Of a stretch of 64,000 nucleotides of DNA, positions 3,078 through 59,388 are shown one piece after another. The notes under the pieces are model-generated. The model made no database searches, had not been told where the DNA came from, and was given only the letters and a program-made list of their open reading frames with translations. Source of the stretch: a virus; IMG/VR virus record IMGVR_UViG_3300008459_000024, positions 1 to 64,000 of that record, one strand, 5' to 3'. Each line of letters starts with the position of its first letter. Positions within the stretch are counted from its first letter, which is position 1. The position numbers and the translations under genes were made by a program.

Positions 3078-5573
3078 TTGGCTAGTTTACTTTGGATACA
3101 GGTATCGGGTTGTTGTGATAATAATTTATTTCAATTTCAGTATTTATCACCCACTTATGCCTTTTCCGCAAACACATCTTATTATGTTATAACTGACCAA
3201 TACACAGGTTGTACATATACCGTTGGTTCAGGTTTTAATACAGGTTATACTGTACATAACTTAGTTAGTGCAAGTACTTTAACATTTACTTCATGTACTG
3301 AATGTGAAACAACATTCCCATGTGCTCCAGTTCCAACAAGAACCCCAACACCAACTCCAAGACCGTCTACGACACCTACAAGAACTCCAACACCAACTCC
3401 AACCATCACATTAACACCAACTCATACTCCAACTCAAACAGTTACCCAAACTCCAACTAACACCCCAACCGTAACTCAAACCCCAACAAATACCGCAACG
3501 GTGACTCCAACAAGGACCGTCACACCAACTGTAACACCTACGGTAACTAACACACCTACTAATACAATTACTCCAAGTATTACACCAACTAATACTCCAA
3601 CAAGGACAGTTACACCAACAAACACATTAACCGCAACGCCAACACCAACTCCAAGTTTAACCCCAACAAATACCCCTACCCCAAGTATTACACCAACTAT
3701 TACTCCAACTCCAACTATTACAAAAACTCCGTTACCTACTTTTGCGGTAACACCAACAACAACTCCAAGTATTAGTGCGACTCAAACACCGACTCCATCT
3801 GCAACTTCACCTTATCAATGTGAACAGAGTAGTTTTTGTGTATTTGCAAATTTAACATCTTACGAACAATATAATGGAACTTACTACAATTATGGTGAAT
3901 TTAATGGTAAAGCTATATTTTACGCACCTGATTCAGTAACTCCGTCTTACATATATTATAACTCATCTGAAACAAGATGGTGTTTATCAGAAACAAGTGG
4001 TGGAACTTGTGTATTATTTGGTCCAACAGGAAGTTCAAGTTTATGTCCTGATTTGGATTCAGTATTATTTAACACAATATGTCCAAGTCCAACACCAACG
4101 GCATCAGATTGTTATGGTTTTGATTTCACAGCATCTTTTGATTGTTCAGTAACTTCAGGGTCAACACCGACTCCTACTCCAACACCAACGTTAACACCTA
4201 CTCCAACAAATACACCAACACCGACTGTTCCATGTACAGGTAAAGCATTGTCATTCTCAGCAATTAATTTTAACTATCCTGGTGTGACAAGAACTCCAAC
4301 ACCAACTCCATCCAACTTACCTAAAACTGTTTCAGTTACAGGTACGTCAACATTCACCTCATTTAGTTCAACATTCACAAGTTCACTGTCTAAACTATTA
4401 ACAGATTGTAATAATCCATTATCATATATCGTATCAGACCCTGTACCATTTAATACAGGTGCAACGTTTAGTGCAATTATTGATGGTAATCCTGTTTGTG
4501 TTACTTATAGTGCGGATACATTCTCACCTCCAACATCTAAATTGGATTCAATCGAGAGTGGTAATTTATTCAACTGTACTTGGTGTACTCCAGCGTATTC
4601 ACCAACACCTACACCTACAATGACCGTTACACCAACTCCAACTATTCCATGCCCTCATGTTATTGACACTGTAAGTATTGGTATTTATAACGAACCCCAG
4701 CAAATTGCAATTTTTGATTACTATGACGGAACAATTGATTCGTTAATGGTTGGGTACCATGGTCTTGGTTCCCCGGCAACCGCAAGACTTAACTTATCAA
4801 CATTATCCGTACAATCCGCCGCCAACGTATCAGGGGGTACTAACATATTTGGTTTAGTCTCAGATAACCAAAGAGGTTACGCATACTTCAGTATGTCTGC
4901 GACTGTTGAGGTGTATTCAATAACTGGAGCATCAACAACATTTGTATCGTCAATACCTGTCGCCGGGTCTCCAAATAGATTAACCTTAGATAGTACAAAT
5001 AATCGATTATTCGTTGGTAACCAGTTGTCAGACCCAATGACGGTAATTAATACTTCGACTTTAATGACCGCTTCCACAATAACAATACCATATAGCTATA
5101 GTTCTAAATTAGTATCATCTTCAGGTAAATTATTTGCAACTCAGAATTTAGGAAATATACTTAATGTTATTGATACAACAACAACCGCATACACCATTAC
5201 AAACACAATACAATTGGAGAACGCTGCCGGAGCAAGATTAGTAGAATACGCAGATGTTAATGACACACTATACATTACCGATTATAACTTTAATAAGATT
5301 TATACAGTAAACCAAAGTACAGAACTTACAGGTACGACAATATCATTGTCAGGTAGACCGTCAGCAATTGTTTATAATACAATTGATGAGAAACTATATG
5401 TAACTCTTAATAATATAAATCAATTAGTCGTAATTAACCCATTAACTAATACAATTACTAAAGTAATGTCAGTGGGAACTAAAGCCGATTCAATAGCATT
5501 TGACTATATCAATAATAAGATATTAGTGGCAAACTACACTGATAATACAATAACAAGAATCTGTGGAGGTTAA
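3078..5573 (+). CDS. Virion surface/fibre protein: Cys-rich modules, Thr-Pro linkers, C-terminal YVTN/YncE-like beta-propeller
   Basis: TTG start; long (TP)n tracts; C-terminal repeats such as [47 protein letters not shown]. Confidence 0.7.
3330..3810 (+). repeat. Degenerate Thr-Pro (mucin-like) coding repeat
   Basis: About 160 codons of ACN-CCN repeats (TPTPTPT/TVTPTNT); shorter tracts near 4165-4230, 4285-4315 and 4600-4650. Confidence 0.9.
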
Positions 5574-40754: not shown

Positions 40755-43700
40755 TTATATACCGTTAGCGCTAGCCAAATTAAAATAAGTTTTCACGTTA
40801 GTTTCTAATTGTGTAACACTATCCGGATTATTTGTTTTGTAAGTATCGTAATAATTTGTAGTTGTTCCCGTATCATTAATCAATTGTTTAACAAACTGTG
40901 TCGCAAATTCATTAATATCTGTAAAATTAGTTACTGAATTAAGATATACCGGAACAAACTTACTATTAATAAAAGTCAAAGATTTTTCAGGTGTTTCAAA
41001 AACCGCATATGTATTAGTACTACCATTCTCATCATCCAAACAAATAAACTCCTCATTAAAGAATGATGATAAAGTTCCACCCCATATTCCCCCATCAAGT
41101 CTTGCTAATATTAAATTGTTATTCCAAGTTTTTATTTTAGTAGAAGCCGCATCATAACTAAACGATAATATAAGAGTTAGTAAAATTTTTCTTGAGTTTA
41201 CATCAGTTGTTAATCCATTAATCTTACTAACAATATCCGAAATAGTGAAATTAGTTTCAACTGGATTTGTAGATGCGTAAGTACTGTAGGGTTGAGCAGG
41301 TTCACAAATTTGTGAGGATGCGGGTTTTCTTTTTTGAATTAATGACTTAGTTGTATTCGTTTGTTGTTGGTTAATATTAGTGGTAGTATTTGTCGCAGTT
41401 GCGGCTCTAGAAACTTTATTAGAATAATTATTTCTAGCGTCAGTTATTAACTGTCGTTTAAGTGACATTAATATTGGATTGACATACGGTAATGTTGTTA
41501 CTTTTTGTCTTTGTCCCGTGAAATCGGTACTGAACTCACCAGGCGCAATTGTGTGAACAACTTCTGTAATATAATAAGAACCAGCAAACATAGGAACATT
41601 TCGTAACACAAAATAGTTTGTTGGTTGAATCATCATATTACCTAGACACCGTATTCTCGCCTTGTATTGTCGAGTTTTAAATACATTATATAAACTAACA
41701 GACTGTGTGTTTGTTCTCGACCCTGACTGACTTGTTGCCAATCTAAAATTAGCATCCAAAGATTCACTTGTTGCCTCCCCATTATCTTGTGATACATTAA
41801 TTGACGTAAAAACATTTTGATTTTGTAATCCAAAGTCAACCGCAAATCCAACAGTCTTATTAGATAACGCCCAATCAGTTTTACCAAATTGATTCTCAAT
41901 TATAGGATTTGCGCTAGTTTTTGATAAATCAAAACTATCCGAATTATACCCATTATTAATATTTTTATTATTCAATTGTTCGGAAGGCTTTTGTTGGTAA
42001 ACACAAACCATTTTTGGTTTGGTTTCTTGGAAATCGACATTATCAAATACCCCAAATAATTTATCGGCAAACAACTCTTCAGGGTCCTCATTATTTTGAT
42101 TATCCCCCTGCGGAGTTATTGAGTTATAATAATTAATATAGATAGGGTTATAAGAAATAATAAAACCATTCTCTCTAATTATATTCTCAATAATTTCGTA
42201 AGTTTGAGTTTTTTGACTTGAGTTTTTTAAAGTTTTAGTAAGTTCTGTCACATTAACAATTATTTGGTCGGATATGTTTCTATTGGCTCTATCCAACAAC
42301 AACACGTCTTCCAATAATGTTTGTGAACTATAGTTATTTCCCGCAACCCATTTATCATTTAAAGATTTAAATAAATCATAAAGTTCAACTTTAGTTAAAT
42401 AAGATTTTAATGGAGAATCACTTAAATCGTTCTCAGTTTTAACTGTTTGTGGTAATTTACCAGTTAATGTTTGGAATGTCTGAGTGAATAAGTTATTTTG
42501 GAAATCCTCAATATCCGCAAAATAACTATCTAATAAAGTAACAAAAGAATCTTTAGTTAATGTTGGGTCAAGTAATTTTTGACTCGCAAATACTTTAATT
42601 AGTGAGGAATAATATTCGATATTATTAATTGTAAATCCGATATTCATCACAGGGAAAAAGTCAGTAATATATGACCCAGTATCTGAGTACACTAATTCAT
42701 TTATCGTTGAGAACCCTACATGTGTTTTAAGTGTTTTCCACTCTTCAGGGTAGTTCGCTAACGATACTGATAATGTGATTGTATTTGCCGTAGTAGGTAC
42801 TGCGTTTGGCGTTCCACTATTGTAATCCACCTCAACTTGTGAGTAATTTAATGGATTAGAAGATAAAGAACTAAATGATTGAGGGTTAAAATTATTAGGA
42901 TTACCCTTAACCATGATAAAGTTTTCTGAAAGCAATCCTGCCATAGTTGACACAAAATTATTTATTTGGTCGTTCTGAATTTTGATAACTACATCATCAT
43001 CATTATTACCAAGTACTTTGTAGTCGTATTGGAATAAATCAATCATGTTTTGGTGTAAGGTAAAATTGTTTGTAACCTCGAATCTTGTCTTAGAGTAATT
43101 TAAAAATTCCTGTTCAATAATATCAAGTTCATCTTTTTGGAAAACTGAGAATAATTCTTCAATTTTTGAATACGTTGAGTCACTTACCAAATCAAAAGAT
43201 GACTGTAAAGTTGAGTTAGTATTAATTACTTTGAAGTACTCGTCGGGGGCGGGTAATGATATAGTTGAAGTGTTAAAATATCCATAGTTTGGTGCCCCCC
43301 ATAACAATCTCGCTGAACCGTTATACATAGAAGAATTACCCATTATAGGATTAACTAAACCTGTCACTGAAAAACATTCTTTTTCTGTCTGATTCACAGT
43401 TCCTCCAAACGAAGGTACCGTAACATATTTATTAGTTGCAATGTTTTTAATTAATATACTCCAGGCATTTAGGAATAACGATGATGTTGCTGTGTAATTA
43501 ACTCTATTAATTTTAGAAGAATTAGGTAACAATATTATAATTTCACCACTTTGTATTCTATTATTAATAGCGTCCTGTATTGTTTGTACGGTAAGACCCG
43601 CATCTGATGGGTTATATATATTAACACCATTTACCAAATAAAAGAAATCATTAATTAATTTTGGATAAAATCCAATATTCACATAATCAATATCACCAAC

Positions 43701-46700
43701 ATCCGAACCTATTGTGGATTCTAACTTTATATTAACCGTATTTGAATTATATAAAATATTATACTGTGTTCCGTATAAACCATTTATTGGGTCGTATGCG
43801 TTTAATTTATCAAAATCAGTTAAAGAATTACTTAAAATGTCAGTTCCAGTTTCAATATACTTCTTATATCTATACCACACACTTCCAAGTTTCGCAACCC
43901 ATAATTTTGGAACGGAATGAACCCCTCCAAACTTTTTAATAGTTGCCGCAATATAATCTAAATCATTACCAATGGATTCGTTAGAACTTTTATATTTTTC
44001 TTTTAACGTAGCCAAAGGCAAACTATTCAAAAAGAAGTAAGAACTTGTAACAAATGGATTCTCAGTTGTTTGTCTAACACTTTCAATATCCTGTATTAAT
44101 GCATTAATAAAATAAGGGGTGTTTAATATGGAGGTTGTTTGAGTATCACTCAATAAACTTGTATTTGTAGAATACAATAAATTACCCTCAGTGAAAACTT
44201 GAGTATCTGTTCTATCAATATAAAAACTATTAATATTAACAGGGATAACAATAGTGTTTGTTAATACTTCGAAATTTGTATATGGTCTATTAAAGTTGTT
44301 ATCACCTGTCTTACCTGTAGTTTTTGGAGTTGTATAATTCGCAAACTTCTTAATGTTTGAGTTATAAATTAACGAATCTGAAGTTTTGTTAAAACTAACA
44401 AATTCGAATCCATCCACACTTGATGCTAAATTATTTTGGTTCCATGTATTAGAAATAAATGGATAAGTGTCGGTGAAATAAACAGGGTTTGTAGCACTTT
44501 GCCCTAAATATGATTCAATCACCCCTTCACTTTCTAAAGTAACTTTAACTTCAGGTAAGTCAGTATCTAAAATCTTAAAGTTATTATCAATTTCACTTTT
44601 TAAATATTCAGTATTAAGAATACCATTTTGAAGTTTAATCCATTTATCAGTAGTCCCATTTAAAGTAATGCTCTTCAAATAGTTTTTAAATTCTATTGGA
44701 CTAAATTTGAAGTTTTTTAATAATTCAACTAAATCATAACTCTGTTTAGATATCCCATTTACAATATTCTCAGATTCCGCATCGGGTAAATATTTTAATA
44801 TCACATCTGATATTAATCGAGTAAAACCTTGGTACTGAGAAATTGTAAGTATACGTTCATAAATCTCAAAAAGGAAATTGACAGTTTCTAAGTTAGAGTA
44901 AGGATTATTCGTTGACGGTGTGTCAAATCCCGATATTATATTTCTATTTACTGCGGTTAAATTTATGGTTTGATTATTCGCAGGGGGGTCTAAATCTCTT
45001 TTCAAGTATCCTTTAACAAATTCTTCAACAAATTCAACTTCAGGCCAAATAGTAAAATCATTAGCCCTTGTAACTGAAATATAATCAGAATCACCAGGAT
45101 ACGCATTCTCATAAACAGTATTATTGTTAACCTTTTTTTCTACAACAAACTGAGGCCAAGGATAAACTGGTGAATCCGGCAAATTTTCAATTATGTCAGA
45201 TAATTCAGGACTACCACCTGACGAGACGGCATTTCTTCTAAAAGTACTATCTCGGTTATCAAAAGCTTTGGTGTGTACGTCATCTAAAAGTAATAAAAAA
45301 GCCTCGGCTGAAGCTAAAATGACAGCAATTACATTTTTAACAGTAGGTTTAAATCCAAGTCCACTACTTGATTCTAAAATTCTATCTAATTCTTCAGATA
45401 AGTTGTTTTCAATTTCGTTTTCACTAGCCTTTAAATCTTGTCTAATTTTTTCACTTAAATTTGCATAATACCCATCCCCATCAAGTCGATAAAATGGTGA
45501 AACCTCAACATCCAATAAGCTATTAGCATTTGCAAATATTAACTCTAACTCAGTCCCAAATAAATCAATTTGTTCCTGAGTCGGAGGGGTCCCATTTCTT
45601 TTAGTTAATGTTTTTAAAATATCAACTTGTGAGATACTTAAAGTCGGCATTATTAAAGACGATAATGTTATAGGAACTTTAATCTCTTTACTTCCTCCCT
45701 CACCAAAAGTTGGATTGTTGTTCAAAATTTGATTATTTCTACTAATAGTTTCCTCAAGAACACTTAACGCCGTTACAGAATTTGTTAATTGTTCGGGTTT
45801 AAATGTATAAATTTCATAATCCACATCATTCTCAGTAATTATGAATGGATTTTTAAGGTCCATATATGTTGAGAACCAAGAATTACTTTTAGTGAATATT
45901 TCTCCGTTATAGTTTATTATTGAACTTCTATAATTCTCAAAGTCTGTAAATGAATTAAATGATAATTTACCATATTCTCCCAAAGTAATATTAACAAAAT
46001 TATCAAGTTTATTTATTAATTGGGGAACCGTAAGTTCGGGAAAACTTTCAGGAATCAATCCCTTTTTTTTGTAATTAGAATAAACTAATTTAATTTTTTC
46101 ATATCCCCTGTATGTGGTTATTTCAGATACAGACTTATTGTTACCTCCTATTTGAGTAGTTTGGTCAACTTGTTGGTTATTAGAGAACTTTTTAGTGTAC
46201 ATTTGAGGAACCGCAAATAAATCCGCATATTGCACATCTTTTAAAACACTAAACTGTTCAGTTCTAAATGTTAATTCTATTTCAAAATTACCAGAATTAG
46301 CATTCATCGAGGTGTAAAAATTGTTTAAGTATAATCGAGTTTTTGTCGCTTTACCATAATATCCTTTAAGTGTTAAATAAAAAACAGGCCATGGATAATT
46401 AAAAAATACAGAATACGCCGAGTCGTCCCCACCTTCAAAAAGTGACCTACCTCTGATATCCTCTAATGTTACTTGTACTTCAGGTACGAAACTTAATCCA
46501 ACATTAAACACGATTCTTGTAATACCAAGTAATTCTTTATTTATCGTATTCTGATTTGGTATACCTTCTTGTAGGTCGGTCCAATTTGTTGTTAATTCTT
46601 GGTTTCCATTTGGATTAAGGAAGTTGACCGTACCAGCAGCGACTTGGATTAATTGCCCTGAATTACCTTCGGTTCCTCTTACAAGCCTACTTCTAGGAAC

Positions 46701-46850
46701 TAAGTCACATTCTAAATTAACATACATTACCAAGTCTTCTTGGTTAATTGTTCTTGGTTCGGGTAAATTTTGGTCATTATAAACCCTATTAGGGTCTACA
46801 ACAAATATATTATCAAAATTACTCTCTACATATATGTTTTTACTTGCCAT
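40755..46850 (-). CDS. Very large baseplate hub-like protein (about 2030 aa)
   Basis: Follows the gp53-like gene; VTLEDIRGRSLFE, FYLTLKGYYGK, CLGNMMIQP...FAGSYYITEVVHTI.PG.F.T.F.G.R (hub/gpD-like C-terminal motif). Start likely ATG 46850. Confidence 0.6.
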   Translation of the reverse strand: MASKNIYVESNFDNIFVVDPNRVYNDQNLPEPRTINQEDLVMYVNLECDLVPRSRLVRGTEGNSGQLIQVAAGTVNFLNPNGNQELTTNWTDLQEGIPNQNTINKELLGITRIVFNVGLSFVPEVQVTLEDIRGRSLFEGGDDSAYSVFFNYPWPVFYLTLKGYYGKATKTRLYLNNFYTSMNANSGNFEIELTFRTEQFSVLKDVQYADLFAVPQMYTKKFSNNQQVDQTTQIGGNNKSVSEITTYRGYEKIKLVYSNYKKKGLIPESFPELTVPQLINKLDNFVNITLGEYGKLSFNSFTDFENYRSSIINYNGEIFTKSNSWFSTYMDLKNPFIITENDVDYEIYTFKPEQLTNSVTALSVLEETISRNNQILNNNPTFGEGGSKEIKVPITLSSLIMPTLSISQVDILKTLTKRNGTPPTQEQIDLFGTELELIFANANSLLDVEVSPFYRLDGDGYYANLSEKIRQDLKASENEIENNLSEELDRILESSSGLGFKPTVKNVIAVILASAEAFLLLLDDVHTKAFDNRDSTFRRNAVSSGGSPELSDIIENLPDSPVYPWPQFVVEKKVNNNTVYENAYPGDSDYISVTRANDFTIWPEVEFVEEFVKGYLKRDLDPPANNQTINLTAVNRNIISGFDTPSTNNPYSNLETVNFLFEIYERILTISQYQGFTRLISDVILKYLPDAESENIVNGISKQSYDLVELLKNFKFSPIEFKNYLKSITLNGTTDKWIKLQNGILNTEYLKSEIDNNFKILDTDLPEVKVTLESEGVIESYLGQSATNPVYFTDTYPFISNTWNQNNLASSVDGFEFVSFNKTSDSLIYNSNIKKFANYTTPKTTGKTGDNNFNRPYTNFEVLTNTIVIPVNINSFYIDRTDTQVFTEGNLLYSTNTSLLSDTQTTSILNTPYFINALIQDIESVRQTTENPFVTSSYFFLNSLPLATLKEKYKSSNESIGNDLDYIAATIKKFGGVHSVPKLWVAKLGSVWYRYKKYIETGTDILSNSLTDFDKLNAYDPINGLYGTQYNILYNSNTVNIKLESTIGSDVGDIDYVNIGFYPKLINDFFYLVNGVNIYNPSDAGLTVQTIQDAINNRIQSGEIIILLPNSSKINRVNYTATSSLFLNAWSILIKNIATNKYVTVPSFGGTVNQTEKECFSVTGLVNPIMGNSSMYNGSARLLWGAPNYGYFNTSTISLPAPDEYFKVINTNSTLQSSFDLVSDSTYSKIEELFSVFQKDELDIIEQEFLNYSKTRFEVTNNFTLHQNMIDLFQYDYKVLGNNDDDVVIKIQNDQINNFVSTMAGLLSENFIMVKGNPNNFNPQSFSSLSSNPLNYSQVEVDYNSGTPNAVPTTANTITLSVSLANYPEEWKTLKTHVGFSTINELVYSDTGSYITDFFPVMNIGFTINNIEYYSSLIKVFASQKLLDPTLTKDSFVTLLDSYFADIEDFQNNLFTQTFQTLTGKLPQTVKTENDLSDSPLKSYLTKVELYDLFKSLNDKWVAGNNYSSQTLLEDVLLLDRANRNISDQIIVNVTELTKTLKNSSQKTQTYEIIENIIRENGFIISYNPIYINYYNSITPQGDNQNNEDPEELFADKLFGVFDNVDFQETKPKMVCVYQQKPSEQLNNKNINNGYNSDSFDLSKTSANPIIENQFGKTDWALSNKTVGFAVDFGLQNQNVFTSINVSQDNGEATSESLDANFRLATSQSGSRTNTQSVSLYNVFKTRQYKARIRCLGNMMIQPTNYFVLRNVPMFAGSYYITEVVHTIAPGEFSTDFTGQRQKVTTLPYVNPILMSLKRQLITDARNNYSNKVSRAATATNTTTNINQQQTNTTKSLIQKRKPASSQICEPAQPYSTYASTNPVETNFTISDIVSKINGLTTDVNSRKILLTLILSFSYDAASTKIKTWNNNLILARLDGGIWGGTLSSFFNEEFICLDDENGSTNTYAVFETPEKSLTFINSKFVPVYLNSVTNFTDINEFATQFVKQLINDTGTTTNYYDTYKTNNPDSVTQLETNVKTYFNLASANGI

Positions 46851-47163
46851 AATAATAAAAATATTGGTCAATTGCCGACTTATAATCTAACAAAGACGGT
46901 GTTAAAGGAAACGGTATAGTCAATATGGTATTATCAGTAATGTTTAATTCAGAACCTCCTTGTATCCCATTTGCTTGTAATATTAACCATCCAAAAAAAG
47001 GAGTTCCGTAATATAGTTGGGATATCTTATCTAATCTTGATGTGTTGATTTTATATACGTGAGTTTTGTCTGTAGATTTTGAAGGTAACTTAACATACGG
47101 TACCACAGTTTGCATACCATTAGAAACTAAGTTTTGATATCGATTATAATATAAATCAGCCAT
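46840..47163 (-). CDS. LysM-like baseplate wedge protein (T4 gp53-like)
   Basis: RLDKISQLYYGTPFFGWLILQAN...LTIP. Confidence 0.8.
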   Translation of the reverse strand: MADLYYNRYQNLVSNGMQTVVPYVKLPSKSTDKTHVYKINTSRLDKISQLYYGTPFFGWLILQANGIQGGSELNITDNTILTIPFPLTPSLLDYKSAIDQYFYYYGK

Positions 47164-51835: not shown

Positions 51836-53722
51836 TTATGCAGTTCGTGTCTCAGACGCCTTTTCAATCGCGAGTGATAATTTCTGTGCGTTTCCCGGTT
51901 TAGTTAACGCCGCCGCCATATCATCAACTTGTTTTTGGGTAAAGGTTCCGTCAGTCTTAAATATTAACTCCACTTTTCCGTTAACGTTTGTGTTATTTGT
52001 ATTTTGAGATGCTGGTTCAGTTGTAATTCCAGGAATATTTATTTCAGGTAATGATAATTGTGGGATTAAACTAGTTTCACCACCAAGGTTTAAACTTTTA
52101 GTAAAATTTTCCAAAGCGGCTTTAGCTGCATCTATTTGAGTTTGGAATCCTGAAAAATCAACACCAGTAAATCCTTGTAAACTTGTTGTTAGATTAGATA
52201 AAGCTCCTGTTAAGGCCCCTAATCCAGCAGAACCGGCAAACGACGCCAACGAAGTTGTTGCCTCCTTTAATTGTCCAAGAGCACCACTTATGTCAGCACT
52301 AGCTAAACTAGTAACAACACCTTGTAAATTATTATTGAATCCTGTTAAAAAAGTTTTAAAATCAGCATTACTCAAACTAAAATTATCAACGAACGCCTTT
52401 GAAGTTGATTGGTAAACAGTTAATGCCGATTTTAATATGTCCACCCCACCAAATTCAGCAAGGGCAAGACCAATAGCATTTTTATTTGCCATCTCAGTTT
52501 CTTTCTGTTGAGCCTCAATAGATTTTGTACTTTTATACCCCCCTTTAACGAATTCATCCGCACTTTGATTAATTTGATTGCTGGCCGTAATATACTCTTC
52601 TAATTCTATTTTTTGTCTATCGGTTAATTTATCCAACTCTTTTGTTATAGTTTCACCATCAGATGTTGTAAATGTAACTTGATACGAAAGTCCACCTTCT
52701 TTATTAGGTAATAACTCCATCATACCTTCTAACTGCTGTAATTGACTTTGACTATAATCAAGATTTAATTCACTAAGTTGTTTAGTTCTTGACTGCATTT
52801 TAAGTAACTCACCTCCAGAACGTACTAAGTCTTGGTATGCAATTCCTGTCTGTTTTGATATCGCCTGTAAATCGTCAACAGAACTTGCAGGTACCTTAAA
52901 TTGTTGTGTTTCCTCATCAAACTCTAAGAATGTTGACGCCATGTCGGCAATTGCGGTTTGTAAATCATCAACCCTATTACGAGCAATATCTTGTAATGCA
53001 AAAGCATCTGTTAACTCAGCATTAACCACTCCCATTCTTTGGAAAAATGCCGCAGTTTCTAATGCCTTTTCAGGTGAGAATAAATCAGTTGCAAGACTAA
53101 AGGTTTCACTCATATCCAATTTCAACCTTCTCGATTGGATAGACATTTTGGTTAATCCTTCAATTCCATTATTAAATCCAAATTCATTTAATTTTGATAA
53201 ATTAGGAATAACATCGTCAGCAACTTGCGATAACGGTACTGAAAAATTCATAGCCTGTACCGCCATTACTTTGGTGTACTCACTAACGGAAGATATTTCT
53301 TTACCGATAGATGCAAAATTAGATATTAATTCTTTAGATGATACCCCAAGAACTTTAGAGTTTGCCAACAAATCAACCATTGATTTTTGTGAAATCACGG
53401 TTCGTCTACCAAACTCATCCATGTACTCTGACATATACTGAGTCGCCAAAGTAACTCCGTTGGCACCTTCTCCCATCACATTTAATTCCGTTGCCGCTTG
53501 TGCCAAATACCCTTGTAATGATTCGGCAAATTTATCAGAAGCACCGAGGGTTCTTTGGAAGTCTTTGGCGAAACTTTCAATCTGTGCGGCAGGGGTCAGT
53601 ATGTTCTTAATTTCAGAACCTGCATCTAAAAATGGCTGAGTAACATTCGCCATTTTTCCAACAGTCCCAATATCGAATGAAGACGCACTACCCGAATTAT
53701 CACCTGGTTTGAGTTGTAACAT
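51836..53722 (-). CDS. Tape measure protein
   Basis: Ala/Gln/Leu-rich helical 628-aa protein directly after the tube and chaperone genes; late motif at 53728-53734. Confidence 0.65.
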   Translation of the reverse strand: MLQLKPGDNSGSASSFDIGTVGKMANVTQPFLDAGSEIKNILTPAAQIESFAKDFQRTLGASDKFAESLQGYLAQAATELNVMGEGANGVTLATQYMSEYMDEFGRRTVISQKSMVDLLANSKVLGVSSKELISNFASIGKEISSVSEYTKVMAVQAMNFSVPLSQVADDVIPNLSKLNEFGFNNGIEGLTKMSIQSRRLKLDMSETFSLATDLFSPEKALETAAFFQRMGVVNAELTDAFALQDIARNRVDDLQTAIADMASTFLEFDEETQQFKVPASSVDDLQAISKQTGIAYQDLVRSGGELLKMQSRTKQLSELNLDYSQSQLQQLEGMMELLPNKEGGLSYQVTFTTSDGETITKELDKLTDRQKIELEEYITASNQINQSADEFVKGGYKSTKSIEAQQKETEMANKNAIGLALAEFGGVDILKSALTVYQSTSKAFVDNFSLSNADFKTFLTGFNNNLQGVVTSLASADISGALGQLKEATTSLASFAGSAGLGALTGALSNLTTSLQGFTGVDFSGFQTQIDAAKAALENFTKSLNLGGETSLIPQLSLPEINIPGITTEPASQNTNNTNVNGKVELIFKTDGTFTQKQVDDMAAALTKPGNAQKLSLAIEKASETRTA

Positions 53723-53742: not shown

Positions 53743-53895
53743 TTAGTTTTCCGTCGCAGAACCAATTAGTCTATTGACAAGATAATTTCTCATATAGATA
53801 GGCATTAACATAAAATCAGAATAAGATGTGTGTAGTCTTGAACCTAATATCATATATTGGTCCAATAAATTACTTAAATAATCAGAAGAAAGGAC
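53743..53895 (-). CDS. +1-frame extension of tail assembly chaperone (candidate frameshift product; not in ORF track)
   Basis: 50 open codons VLSSDYLSNLLDQYMILGSRLHTSYSDFMLMPIYMRNYLVNRLIGSATEN*, filling the gap to the tape measure gene's late motif. Confidence 0.65.
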   Translation of the reverse strand, partial: VLSSDYLSNLLDQYMILGSRLHTSYSDFMLMPIYMRNYLVNRLIGSATEN

Positions 53896-54631
53896 GAAAA
53901 AACTCCGCCCCAAAGGATATTCTTGCCAATACCTTTTTTCCTGACGGGGCTAAAACTTCTCTGTTTAAATCTAATTTAGGTTCATTCTCCATTATGAAGT
54001 TTGAAATAAACTTAGAATCCATGATTGGCATTTTACTTACAAAATCTTGAATGTCAGATATTTCTTTTGACCCGTCAATCTCAACAATTTGTTTTAATAA
54101 TTTATTAGTGACTGTAGGAGCGTATGATGAACCAACATAACCCTTACCATATTTGTTTAGTTCGTTTAACTCACCAAATGTCAATACTTTTAATTTAACA
54201 GACTTACCTGATTTTGGTAACACGACATTAAATAATCCGTTACTATCAGGTTCAACTGAAGGTTTTCTAAACTCAATTTCATCCAAACTAATTTCTCTTT
54301 GGAATTGTTTTCCCGTTTCAGGGTCAATTAATGTAAACTTATATTCACTACCAAATGATGTATTTCTTAGAAAAACTAAAATCGCCTCAATATCACCCTC
54401 CAACATATCTTCAGGTCTTAAATCGGGTTCATACATTTTTCCCCTAACTAAATTAATAATTAATTGTTGTCCGTCCATATTAGCCGCAGATGCCAACATG
54501 TTTTCGTCAACCGCAGTTAAGTAACCAACTTTAACACTTTTTTTATTAGTTTTGTAAAATTTACCTTCGCTAGGTAATTTTACAATATCATGAGGTAAGT
54601 TTAAATGTTCTTGAGCAATTTTGTTGTCCAT
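53882..54631 (-). CDS. Tail assembly chaperone / T4 gp26-like hub assembly protein
   Basis: VKLPSEGKFY..VKVGYLTAVDE, LLEGD-like MLEGDIEAILVFLR; lies between tube and tape measure genes; ends GAEFFRPFF. Confidence 0.75.
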   Translation of the reverse strand: MDNKIAQEHLNLPHDIVKLPSEGKFYKTNKKSVKVGYLTAVDENMLASAANMDGQQLIINLVRGKMYEPDLRPEDMLEGDIEAILVFLRNTSFGSEYKFTLIDPETGKQFQREISLDEIEFRKPSVEPDSNGLFNVVLPKSGKSVKLKVLTFGELNELNKYGKGYVGSSYAPTVTNKLLKQIVEIDGSKEISDIQDFVSKMPIMDSKFISNFIMENEPKLDLNREVLAPSGKKVLARISFGAEFFRPFF

Positions 54632-54725: not shown

Positions 54726-55211
54726 TTAGTATACTAAGACACAATAGTCAGGTCTAAGAGTTGCTTTGATGTCGGCTAATTTATCATCATCATAAGATAA
54801 TGAACCAAAATCAACGTTAGTTAAGAATGTACCAATTAATAACCATTTTTCGATTACAACACCGGTTGGGTCTAACATGTCCAATTCAAGGTCTCTCTTG
54901 TATCCTGCGGCATATCCCATACGTCCTGTTACAGACTCAGCATGTAAACGAACCCATTCCATCAAGGCTTGAGCTGCTGAAGGTCCAATCGGGTCTCTAA
55001 ACGTAACGTCTATGGATTCCCAGTTATATCTTCCAGCTACGTATCTTGACGTATTTAAAAATGGAATTTCAGTTTCAGCAATTTTAATGTTTGGTCTAGA
55101 AGTTGATTCAACAAACCATTCATTAATACCTAAGTTATCAAACTTTAAAATGAACCTGTTTTTTCTTTTTGGCTCATACGGTATCGGCATTTTCATTAGT
55201 AAATCAGCCAT
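54726..55211 (-). CDS. Tail tube protein (T4 gp19-like)
   Basis: YEPKRKNRF, SRP, YVAGRYNW, DPIGPSAAQALMEW, GYKRD, LDPTGVVIEKW. Confidence 0.88.
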   Translation of the reverse strand: MADLLMKMPIPYEPKRKNRFILKFDNLGINEWFVESTSRPNIKIAETEIPFLNTSRYVAGRYNWESIDVTFRDPIGPSAAQALMEWVRLHAESVTGRMGYAAGYKRDLELDMLDPTGVVIEKWLLIGTFLTNVDFGSLSYDDDKLADIKATLRPDYCVLVY

Positions 55212-56205: not shown

Positions 56206-59200
56206 TTAAATGTTTTCAAAAGACGCTCCTGTTGGAGTGATTAAGAACTCAATGTCGATGAATTCTAACGCTTTAGTTGGTTTGATGTAAATCTTACCTA
56301 CTAATTGGTTTCTATCCAAATCCTCAGGTGTGTTAGAAACAGTTACTCTAAAGTCATATAAACCTCTATCTCTACGAATAGCATCTAAGATTGGGTTAAC
56401 TGAATCTAAGAATTGTTGTCTAACGATATTATCGTTTTGTTCAAACAATAATCTTACCGCCACCGCTGAAATCAACTTACGAGCTTGTAACAACAAACGT
56501 CTTACGTTGATTCTATCAAGAGCTGATTCCGCAACTTGTAAAGTTTTGTTACCCCAAATTACAGTTCCAACGTCGTTAAATGTTGCAATTGGGTTAATTC
56601 TACCTTTATACAACGTATCTCTATCTTCTTGAGTTAATCTTCTTCTCGCTCTGATTGCGTTTACAACACCTCTTGTGTAACCTGCAGTTGCGAACCAAGG
56701 GAATGCGATGTTATCAGTTAACGCTAAGTTTCTTGTAACTTCAGCAGTTGCTGGAAGATAAATTTGTGTGTTATTAACCGTATCACGAGTCAATACCCAT
56801 GGATAGTAAGTTGCTGTGTAGTTTGAATCTATACCTGAAGTTTCCAACTCGTCAACAATTTCTTGTGGGTAAATTAAATTATCCATTGAAGTTGTCGGTT
56901 GTAATAAATCAAAGTCAGGTGATGTCATGATGTAGATAGAGTCAGCTCTATCGTTTTCTACCATGTCGATTGCCGACTCACAAAGGTTAGAGTTGTTAAC
57001 AAAGTCAACACCAGGTGTAACGAACACATTAATATTAGTTACCTCAGGATTATTGAACGATTGAATACCTAACAAGTATGCGTAATAGTCAGTATTTGCA
57101 TAATCTGTAGTATTATCTTCTACCGTAATTGGTTTGAATAATCCCCATCCTGTTGAGTCGGGGTAACGTGTACAACCTGCTAATTGACCAGCTTTGTAAC
57201 CACTTTGTCCTAAAACAAATGTATCACCATTAGTTCTATATTCTCTATAGATATCCCATCCGTCAAATCCGCCTTGTACTAAGAAAGTGAACTTTCTTGA
57301 GAATATTTTGTAATATGGATTATCAGAATTACTTGGGTCAGATTGGAATGATGCGTCACCAACCTGGAAGGCTGATTGTCCTGATGTTACATATGAGTTG
57401 GCAATTGTTACAACAGTTGCTCCACTATCCATGTGGAAACCTTTAGTTAACTTACTCCAATCACTGTATGAACCTTCAACACACCAACTTCCTGTATAGT
57501 TTTGTTTTCCTTTATACGCGAAGAAGTCAGGGTCAAATCCAATACTGTCAGAGATACCTAAGTAAGTTCTACGAATATTGTCACCAGGACTAATTACTGC
57601 ATCGTCTCCAGCAGTTGAACCGAATGGAGGGTTAAATATTTCTTCACCTGGGATATCGTAGTGAGTTTTATAGATTGGGAATGGAGAATCTTTACCTGAA
57701 TAAGTACGAGTAACGTATCCTTCAAAACCACAAGGTAATGAGTCAATTGGAGCGTCAGCATTTAATTCCAACATAATGAATTTAGAATTTACTGCGAACT
57801 CACCATCATTACTACCTACTTTTTTACCGACATAACTATTAAGACTTGGGTCCATAGTACAGTTAGTAAATTTCTCTAAAACAACAGGGTTGGCATCTGT
57901 ATCAAAGTAATCTCTTACGATTAAATCAAATGTTCCATTGTTGAATGACATGTTAGCCACAGATACTTTAACTTCGTAGTTTGCGCTATTACCATCAGAA
58001 ATTGTGTGAACTCTAAATAATTGATAAACTAAATTACCTCTTAATTCAGAAACAACCCATGGTGATTTTGGAGTTTGGTATCTCTCTAAGTAAAAACCTA
58101 TAGATGTAGTATTTTGGTTTCTTGCTTCAGGTAAGTAAGTTAATGACGTATTCAATCCTCTAATATACCCTTTATTATATCCGTAAGTTAACAAGTTTTG
58201 ATATCTTTCTTCAACAAACAAAGGAACTTCAGTTCTATCTTTTTCAAAGTTTTGTGTTCCGAATACCTTACTAATGTAATTTGTACTAGCCTGAGTAAAT
58301 GATGTTTCAAAACTAAATGTTTGACTATCAATATCAGTACCTGAAATTACAAAAGTTGCAAATGGATTTTGAGTAATTGCGGAATATGAACCTGAAGATA
58401 CTAAACTAGCGGTGTCACCGGTTAATTGATATTGGTCCCCAAGATTTGCACTACTGAATGTTGAAATACCTCTTGAACGTAATGTGGCGATTACTAATCC
58501 GTTATAATCTGTGTGTGCAGTAGCGGTGTAAGATAGAACTGAACCTTCGGTTGCTCCTGTGAAAGAACCGCCTCCTATTGATTGTAAATACTTAAATTCT
58601 AAATAGAATGAATATCCACTATAACCATCTCCTGAAGTAACATCAAAATTAGCATAATACCATGCATCATTTAATCTATCACAAAAATCTATTGTGTTTG
58701 CACTGATACTTGTTACCGAGTATTTGTTTGTTACTCCGGTAATTGTTGGTAAATTCCCTAATTGTGTATTACTTAAAGGTCCGTATACTAAAGATGTTGT
58801 TGCAGATAGTGAGTTAGTTAAAACCGCAGAAGTGATAAAAGAATTAATATCTGAACGATAAGATGATGTGGTACCATCAAATTTAGTATAAACTCTATCA
58901 AAATCTGAATATACTGTAGTTCCTGTAAAATCAACTGAGTCGGGTCCCGATGTTGAGTAGGTCACAGTTCCCGCGGTTGTCGCGGTGAAATATATGATAA
59001 CTCCCGGAATTACACTACTAACTGCCACAGTTTCACAGTTAACATTACCCACAGTACTAATTGACCAAGAAGGTCCCGCATCATAACCTGATAATCCAAG
59101 TACACGAGTTACGAAAAGTTGATTTGATTGTTGTAAATATGATTTTGCAATGTATGCGGCCTCATATTTAGGAATTTGTGTATTAACAAATTTTTCAGGA

Positions 59201-59388
59201 GTTGTTCCACCGAAATAAGTAGAAAACTCGTCATAGCTGGTAACAAAAATAGGTTCAAAGGCAGGACCTTTTAAAGTCTCACCAACAATACCTAAAGTTG
59301 TAACACCAACACTTTGAGAAACAAATGATAAGTCCCTTTCTGACGTGTAAACACCAGGAGAAACAAATATTTTACTGTTTGATGCCAT
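56206..59388 (-). CDS. Tail sheath protein (T4 gp18-like), enlarged
   Basis: SPGVYTSERDLS, GETLKGPAFEP, YYPW, PWFATAGYTRG, LYKGRINPI, WGNKTLQ, DRINVRRL, FEQND. Confidence 0.95.
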   Translation of the reverse strand: MASNSKIFVSPGVYTSERDLSFVSQSVGVTTLGIVGETLKGPAFEPIFVTSYDEFSTYFGGTTPEKFVNTQIPKYEAAYIAKSYLQQSNQLFVTRVLGLSGYDAGPSWSISTVGNVNCETVAVSSVIPGVIIYFTATTAGTVTYSTSGPDSVDFTGTTVYSDFDRVYTKFDGTTSSYRSDINSFITSAVLTNSLSATTSLVYGPLSNTQLGNLPTITGVTNKYSVTSISANTIDFCDRLNDAWYYANFDVTSGDGYSGYSFYLEFKYLQSIGGGSFTGATEGSVLSYTATAHTDYNGLVIATLRSRGISTFSSANLGDQYQLTGDTASLVSSGSYSAITQNPFATFVISGTDIDSQTFSFETSFTQASTNYISKVFGTQNFEKDRTEVPLFVEERYQNLLTYGYNKGYIRGLNTSLTYLPEARNQNTTSIGFYLERYQTPKSPWVVSELRGNLVYQLFRVHTISDGNSANYEVKVSVANMSFNNGTFDLIVRDYFDTDANPVVLEKFTNCTMDPSLNSYVGKKVGSNDGEFAVNSKFIMLELNADAPIDSLPCGFEGYVTRTYSGKDSPFPIYKTHYDIPGEEIFNPPFGSTAGDDAVISPGDNIRRTYLGISDSIGFDPDFFAYKGKQNYTGSWCVEGSYSDWSKLTKGFHMDSGATVVTIANSYVTSGQSAFQVGDASFQSDPSNSDNPYYKIFSRKFTFLVQGGFDGWDIYREYRTNGDTFVLGQSGYKAGQLAGCTRYPDSTGWGLFKPITVEDNTTDYANTDYYAYLLGIQSFNNPEVTNINVFVTPGVDFVNNSNLCESAIDMVENDRADSIYIMTSPDFDLLQPTTSMDNLIYPQEIVDELETSGIDSNYTATYYPWVLTRDTVNNTQIYLPATAEVTRNLALTDNIAFPWFATAGYTRGVVNAIRARRRLTQEDRDTLYKGRINPIATFNDVGTVIWGNKTLQVAESALDRINVRRLLLQARKLISAVAVRLLFEQNDNIVRQQFLDSVNPILDAIRRDRGLYDFRVTVSNTPEDLDRNQLVGKIYIKPTKALEFIDIEFLITPTGASFENI

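Follow-up and report, generated by a model that had tools for sequence, protein, structure and literature searches.

Long-tailed phages characteristically make tail assembly chaperone pairs by frameshifting, and the G/GT frameshift that produces them is conserved (Levin 1993; Xu, Hendrix, Duda 2004). In phage lambda, the tape measure gene is directly preceded by two overlapping open reading frames (ORFs), of which the second has no start of its own; the first carries, close to its end, a conserved slippery sequence, G_GGA_AAG, that shifts ribosomes by −1, giving gpG and gpGT in a fixed ratio. The chaperone gene of phage Mu uses a −2 frameshift. In the T4-like phages, gp26 and gp51 were reportedly identified as the tail assembly chaperones by Vladimirov, Gautam and Davidson (Virology 2022; PMID 34826709). 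These two proteins are listed as hub assembly chaperones (PMC3004832) and are encoded by separate, divergently placed genes; T4 has been named as an exception to the G-T frameshift (PMC5009743), and, according to papers that cite Vladimirov et al. (PMC10885494, PMC12846349), T4-like phages have no such frameshift but a short gene for one chaperone and a longer, fused gene for the other. The locus described here would tie the T4 hub chaperones to the G/GT logic. It lies on the minus strand of a 64,000-nucleotide stretch of viral DNA (positions 1 to 64,000 of IMG/VR record IMGVR_UViG_3300008459_000024, hereafter the window), where one tail assembly gene very probably yields a protein of 249 residues and, by a one-base forward slip, an extended form of 295, as judged from the window and its relatives.

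The zero-frame gene (53882..54631, minus strand) encodes the short form, a 249-amino-acid (aa) protein of the T4 gp26 family identified by PF12322 and phrog_150, and ends with GAG TTT TTT CGT CCT TTC TTC TGA at positions 53905-53882. Skipping the C at 53896 opens the +1 frame, which reads GTC CTT TCT TCT GAT onward, begins VLSSDYL, runs for 50 sense codons (53895-53746) and terminates at TAA 53745-53743 on the same strand. This extension (53743..53895 with its stop) is recognized by its conservation and coding signal and would form the C-terminal domain of the long form. Read-through translation gives a fusion of 295 aa against the 249 aa of the short product, so that the gene end, the +1 frame, its terminator and both lengths are as a first-pass annotation of this DNA had described them. 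A −1 reading at the same site was rejected, as it closes with TAA after seven codons.

The gene sits between the tube gene (54726-55211) and the probable tape measure gene (51836-53722), as the first-pass annotation had placed it, and cultured phages present the same order. Like lambda, the window combines overlapping ORFs just ahead of the tape measure gene, a second ORF without its own start and a slippery sequence conserved close to where the first ORF ends, and a fixed ratio of short to long form would be expected. It differs from lambda in the proposed shift by +1 on UUU_C, in showing no detectable sequence similarity and in having a body about twice as long, which looks like two chaperone-like domains.

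An open +1 frame could be a functionless by-product, or the break between frames an assembly error in a single gene. At 33% G+C, we estimate from base composition that a 50-codon open frame arises by chance with a frequency of about 2% per frame, which leaves some room for the first possibility. The other genes of the window have a median of 6 open +1 codons after their stops (overlapping neighbor genes excluded), and an independent contig spans the site with the same sequence. The arrangement is beyond chance because the same layout is conserved in all 140 distinct relatives, found in many independent metagenome assemblies and six isolate genomes. The comparative data, including the purifying selection in the +1 frame described below, already contradict a by-product or an assembly error, and either is extremely improbable.

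These relatives were collected by scanning IMG/VR and comprise 75 distinct close relatives at 50 to 88% protein identity, which form the window's own clade, and 73 distinct distant relatives; 140 distinct sequences entered the count of UUU_Y sites. In every close and distant relative, an ORF of 40 to 88 codons continues past the zero-frame stop, always in the +1 frame and never in a variable one, and the −1 frame closes within a few codons. The relatives share an extension of 48 to 62 codons with the motif LSSxY..LLDEY...SYSDF..MP.Y.R+YL. Codon-position entropy of the extension is highest at position 3 (1.33), intermediate at position 1 (0.98) and lowest at position 2 (0.77), and the pairwise ratio of nonsynonymous to synonymous change (pN/pS) is 0.46 in the +1 frame versus 0.95 and 1.18 in the other two. 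By these measures, it is in the +1 frame alone that the extension evolves as a protein, under purifying selection. An AlphaFold2 (AF2) model of the extension alone shows three helices, with a predicted local distance difference test (pLDDT) score of 91.

The putative shift site UUU_UUU_CGU (53894..53902, minus strand) is conserved across the 75 close relatives. The second Phe codon is TTT in all 75, TTT TTT CGN is found in 74, and the remaining one (L045) has TTC TTT CGC. The first-pass annotation had called for an alignment of this junction, and in that alignment TTT_CG is invariant (75/75). The codon after TTT is CGT, CGC, CGG or CGA in the close clade and never AGA or AGG, and AGA accounts for 67% of the Arg codons in the window and CGT for 11%. 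Among the 20033 codons of the window, in-frame TTT_CGN occurs once, at the shift site, and TTT_C in general makes up 37 of the 776 TTT codons. Across the wider set, an in-frame UUU_Y lies inside the overlap in 140/140 distinct relatives.

The site is embedded in a block, TTT GGG GYN GAR TTT TTT CGN CCT TTC TTC stop (53878..53915, minus strand), that stands out by alignment conservation and by the codon table. In the close clade, hardly any nucleotide varies within the last 11 codons, and EFFRPFF is the protein end of all 119 close clusters. That CCT TTC TTC downstream of the site is invariant fits double coding, as these bases specify PFF-stop in the zero frame and LSS in the +1 frame. Upstream, a GGG Gly codon is kept in 74/75 relatives though GGG makes up 13% of the Gly codons of the window. 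The resulting GGGG (53909-53912, minus strand) lies 8 nucleotides (nt) before the shift codon; because it is upstream of the double-coded part, its conservation is not explained by coding. It may contact the anti-Shine-Dalgarno sequence or belong to a small hairpin, the bases being invariant and thus offering no variation by which to judge. The only RNA structure seen was a small hairpin of invariant bases with no covariation, and a stimulator downstream of the site was rejected.

Two relatives (L103 and L110) narrow the place of the frame change. In both, the Val codon is GTA, which puts a TAG into the +1 frame two codons ahead of TTT TTT, and the zero frame ends four codons past TTT TTT. The change of frame is thus confined to AG TTT TTT CGN CCT TTC TTC T, flanked by the +1-frame TAG and the zero-frame stop, and within this interval UUU_C is, on the aligned sequences, the only plausible slip site.

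The same +1 frame would also be reached by a −2 ribosomal slip on the U6 run (...EFFF-VLSS) or by RNA polymerase slipping and omitting one U. A run of six T is present in the window and in 74/75 close relatives, and a related subfamily ending in FFWP has seven (TTT TTT TGG); a −2 slip would re-pair tRNA-Phe perfectly on U6, and −2 is the direction used by the Mu chaperone gene. However, the T run is broken in L045 (TTC TTT CGC) and in the cultured Bacillus phage HSE3 and Streptococcus phage GXN1 (TTC TTT CGT), all of which retain the +1 ORF; in these three, the tRNA would meet a mismatched codon after a −2 slip, and slippage by the polymerase is unlikely. In addition, the base after the T run is always C in the close clade though any Arg codon would serve the protein, and this base matters for a slip from UUU to UUC and not for a −2 slip. 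Six T are short for efficient transcriptional slippage, and the T run is free of indels in the sequencing runs aligned to the window, these being contigs, which drop rare variants. Either of these slips is very improbable as the route to the long form.

The downstream ORF might instead be a separate small gene, started at TTG 53913, at the TTG of codon 11 or at ATG 53853, or translated by re-initiation after the TGA, in which case no fusion would be made. Small separate ORFs are indeed annotated in cultured relatives (SP15_046, HSE3_gp075, immuto35A_232 and an overlapping coding sequence in Mel-JY01), and most close relatives have a +1-frame TTG six codons upstream of the site. Six relatives nevertheless have TTC GGG here and so lack the TTG, and in L103 and L110 the in-frame TAG comes after the TTG, so that the first internal start is codon 23 or 31, past the conserved N-terminal part. 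Because of that TAG in two relatives and the missing TTG in six, an independent start is ruled out. In Bacillus phage HSE3, the +1 frame is closed by a stop five codons ahead of the site and offers no start from there to the site, and internal start codons elsewhere are scattered from codon 7 to codon 31, often past the LSSxY..LLDEY segment. Between the TTG and the site, changes such as GCG to GCT and GAG to GAA leave the zero-frame protein as it is and alter the residue in the +1 frame. The second ORF is conserved from the shift site onward, ahead of any start codon, in agreement with what the first-pass annotation had predicted for a fusion. A separate gene would also leave unexplained why the Arg codon is CGN and never AGR and why the shift codon is always TTT, and in T4 gp51 the two parts function as one chain. 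Separate initiation of the extension is thus very improbable.

A +1 slip at UUU that makes the long, gp51-type form of a gp26-family chaperone is therefore the reading we consider likely for this locus, and the slip of tRNA-Phe from UUU to UUC that the first-pass annotation had proposed gains support from the comparison of relatives. In this mechanism, most ribosomes would stop at TGA 53884-53882 and give the 249-aa short form. In a minority, peptidyl-tRNA-Phe would occupy the second UUU (53899-53897) in the P site with the infrequent Arg codon CGU (53896-53894) in the A site, and the tRNA would move forward one base onto UUC 53898-53896, a better fit for its GAA anticodon. The shifted ribosomes would then read GUC CUU UCU onward and add the 50-residue three-helix domain. 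The resulting 295-aa long form, with the junction ...GAEFF-VLSSDYL and the predicted junction peptide GAEFFVLSSDYL, would be the counterpart of T4 gp51 and lambda gpGT. Both forms, in a fixed ratio, may act jointly to assemble the tape measure/hub complex on which the tube polymerizes. The occurrence of the shift itself, its efficiency and the binding partner of the extension are what we infer from this arrangement. UUU_Ynn has been documented in bacteria as a sequence that favors +1 slips (PMC5009743).

The first-pass annotation had described the gene as a tail assembly chaperone of the G/GT type. Its function as a tail chaperone gene stands, but its family is corrected to that of T4 gp26 (PF12322), with the extension corresponding to the gp51 C terminus. 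The 249-aa protein matches PF12322 (T4_baseplate) with 44.8 bits against a cutoff of 24.5, residues 21 to 230 aligning with profile positions 11 to 202 of 219, and matches phrog_150 with an E value of 1.2e-16, ending at profile position 233. T4 gp51 spans positions 13 to 280 of 282 in phrog_150 and consists of PF12322 plus a C-terminal domain (PF28602 in precomputed annotation). Structural matches of the 249-aa protein in BFVD reach E values of 5e-16 to gp26/gp51-like proteins, for example that of SP-15. Extensions of relatives match the C-terminal third (positions 67 to 119 of 121) of phrog_634, the gp51 family annotated as “baseplate hub assembly catalyst,” with E values of 1.2e-5, 4.7e-4, 2.2e-3 and 7.6e-3. 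A profile of the distant extensions matches the window's extension with an E value of 1.1e-21 and gp51 residues 212 to 249 of 250 with an E value of 2.3e-4, the latter at a probability of 44%. The extension is thus placed by these profiles as homologous to the gp51 C terminus, through intermediates only.

On this evidence, the locus presents itself as a one-gene version of the T4 26/51 pair. In both T4 and the window, a short and a long form of one PF12322/phrog_150 chaperone are found, and gp51, like the window's long form, is a gp26-like body followed by a C-terminal domain of about 45 aa. Unlike T4, with its two separate genes 26 and 51, the window has one gene with proposed recoding in the position between tube and tape measure. 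T4 gene 26 ends in KEFFELL-stop and is followed by gene 25, with no +1 ORF or extension. The frame arrangement, the invariance of the site, the +1 coding selection from the site onward and the gp26/gp51 homology of both parts are all shown by the sequence comparison.

The AF2 model of the 249-aa body has a pLDDT of 90.5. Among solved structures, phage tail assembly chaperones are its best matches, but these are weak and below the trust level of the tool, with Z scores of 6.4 for 3fgx, 5.6 for the HK97 chaperone 2ob9 and 5.4 for YqbN (3klu), where unrelated rows reach at most 3.3; the fold likeness to the HK97 chaperone, and with it to the lambda type, is accordingly weak. 2ob9 is rank 1 for the body model in Foldseek, with an E value of 0.58, and 3fgx, 2ob9 and YqbN match two separate halves of the model. 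Sequence searches of the PDB and of NCBIfam found nothing.

A Pfam scan of the window-type extensions returned DUF6760 below threshold only. As a separate observation, the nine distant extensions scanned (e.g., L141:1943-2149 and L121:2282-2515) all match DUF6760 (PF20546) below its cutoff, in the same profile region, with a best E value of 2.4e-5. These matches are a lead only; DUF6760, a family of unknown function, may be a free-standing or miscalled form of the chaperone C-terminal domain.

Several points weigh against a +1 slip at UUU that produces a gp51-type long form. The 140/140 occurrence of UUU_Y does not represent 140 independent events, as the relatives share ancestry. For most members, slipping by −2 on T6 would give the same frame. 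CGU, at 11% of Arg codons, is only moderately rare in the window. Downstream of the site, no conserved RNA structure or other recognizable stimulatory element was found, the fold z-score being −1.08. With hhalign, the window-type extension shows no significant match to T4 gp51 alone or to the gp51 alignment (E value of 0.23); hhalign is insensitive here, since it also does not link the two PF12322 bodies.

The shift site had been assigned by the first-pass annotation to the motif of influenza PA-X. In influenza, a UCC codon in the E site contributes to the efficiency of the PA-X shift. The window shares with influenza A PA-X and the amalgaviruses (UCC_UUU_CGU) a UUU in the P site followed by CGU (53899-53894), at which tRNA-Phe re-pairs on UUC beside an infrequent Arg codon in the A site. 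The UCC codon is absent, however, and the link holds as a resemblance only: the E-site codon is UUU in the window and UUC in L045, HSE3 and GXN1, the third base of CGN is free among the window's relatives, and the ribosome is bacterial. The conserved core across the aligned relatives is UUU_Y and not the PA-X motif, and the likeness reflects the general slipperiness of UUU_Y, not common descent.

Documented +1 recoding includes prfB of Escherichia coli (CUU_UGA, with a Shine-Dalgarno stimulator), cps/tsh of Listeria phage PSA (CCC_UGA), YopN-TyeA of Yersinia (UUU_Y) and, likely +1, the chaperone of the haloarchaeal myovirus HSTV-2 (PMC5009743). As in these systems, one P-site tRNA would slip forward in the window beside a slowly decoded A-site codon, and HSTV-2 would be a precedent for the +1 direction in a chaperone gene. 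Unlike them, the window has no stop codon in the A site and no proven stimulator; the stimulator of prfB is spaced by 3 nt, whereas the GGGG of the window is 8 nt upstream.

The gene order of sheath, tube, gp26-like protein and tape measure, with a +1 ORF behind UUU followed by C or U, is found in six cultured phages and in a 484-kb uncultured phage. The cultured phages are Bacillus phages SP-15 (L113) and HSE3 (L114), Listeria phage LIS04 (L112), Streptococcus phage GXN1 (L025), Flavobacterium phage immuto (L026) and Microcystis phage Mel-JY01 (L111), and in two of them the site is the identical TTT CGT C. None of the six carries a frameshift annotation, and the gene is called “baseplate hub”; the small hypothetical ORFs SP15_046, HSE3_gp075 and immuto35A_232 probably represent parts of the long form. 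Across the wider family, UUU is followed by UGG, CUA, CAC or CUU, and the large subfamily ending in FFWP has an invariant TTT TTT TGG CCT. The gp26-like family comprises about 1500 clusters at 50% identity, most of which end two to five residues past an FF[WRYF]P-like motif. A very distant case is Xanthomonas phage XacN1 (L029, AP018399, ~3780-4040), in which the gp26-like gene has GCT TTT TTT ATT (U_UUU_UUU) near its end and the −1 frame behind it holds a related extension, recorded as an ORF of its own (ORF316, 60 aa); the same chaperone pair probably exists here in a −1 version.

Two further features of the family were observed. Many of its members (P0129-P0260) have an additional 100 to 250 residues at the N terminus, for a total of 340 to 500 aa, and one subgroup ends in F.F[LI]N rather than in FFWP or FFRPFF.

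It is conceivable, though we lean slightly against it, that the UUU_Y slip is the standard route to the long form for gp26-family chaperones of contractile-tailed phages outside T4 proper, across about 1500 clusters and hosts among Bacillota, Bacteroidota and Cyanobacteria, with the GGGG as an anti-Shine-Dalgarno-binding stimulator as a further twist. If so, it would be among the most widespread +1 programmed frameshifts in bacterial viruses and may be unreported, and the T4-type phages would no longer be the textbook exception to the chaperone frameshift. A stimulatory GGGG would moreover act in a system that otherwise ignores Shine-Dalgarno sequences.

The G/GT chaperone frameshift and the role of gp26 and gp51 as T4 chaperones are known already. 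A +1 shift at UUU_CGN or UUU_Y in the gp26 family, and its breadth, were not found in the searchable literature, a scope outside which Vladimirov et al. 2022 lies, and a forward shift at UUU_CGN appears to be new for these genes. The locus would give the T4 gp26/gp51 pair from one gene by recoding, at the canonical position beside the tape measure gene. A +1 shift at a plain UUU_C, with no stop codon and no obvious stimulator, would also be a natural model for bacterial P-site slippage, in hosts probably without Shine-Dalgarno initiation. Gene callers and curators would have missed the long form in SP-15, HSE3, LIS04, GXN1, immuto and Mel-JY01. Many such entries could be corrected by an annotation rule that looks for three features: a gene of the gp26 family preceding the tape measure gene, a UUU_Y close to where that gene ends, and an MP..R motif in a +1 ORF.

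The window belongs to a virus record of 78 kb that is estimated to be about 27% complete and has 33% G+C, and the size of the record at that completeness therefore indicates a jumbo phage. A blastn search against phage genomes found no close relative, and near-identical DNA is contained in lake and freshwater metagenomes of several studies. In four public runs, contigs of diverged relatives align to the window solely over the 38-nt shift cassette, and the summed contig depth rises 5- to 20-fold at positions 53869-53909, which shows that several related phages coexist in the same lakes.

On the minus strand, the genes follow the order of sheath, an unknown 271-aa gene, tube, the 249-aa gene, the +1 ORF, the probable tape measure and very large proteins of the baseplate region. 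The tail sheath protein (1060 aa, 56206..59388, minus strand) matches phrog_23 with an E value of 4e-56 and the Pfam families PF04984 and PF17482 above their cutoffs, and the tail tube protein (161 aa, 54726..55211, minus strand) matches phrog_4542, tail tube protein, with an E value of 1e-30. The probable tape measure protein (628 aa, 51836..53722, minus strand) is assigned from its position, which is as in the six cultured phages with the same gene order. Its language-model features match the PF10145 and PF20155 clusters at 0.93, which is a lead only, its match to phrog_14 is weak (E value of 0.009), and a BLASTP comparison with the tape measure protein of immuto was not significant.

A Shine-Dalgarno-like word is present at −20 to −4 in 3 of the 37 long ORFs of the window, which equals the background rate of 10.5%, and the phage thus initiates translation without Shine-Dalgarno sequences. 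This suggests a host that initiates without Shine-Dalgarno pairing, perhaps a member of the Bacteroidota. The regions upstream of the 37 ORFs are A/T rich, and many contain a TATTTAT-like motif.

Farther along the minus strand, a 107-aa ORF (46840-47163) has a weak match to a baseplate wedge subunit. It overlaps by 32 nt, in the +1 frame, a 2038-aa ORF started at TTG (40755-46871, minus strand), and this may be either an ordinary overlap or a further junction of interest.

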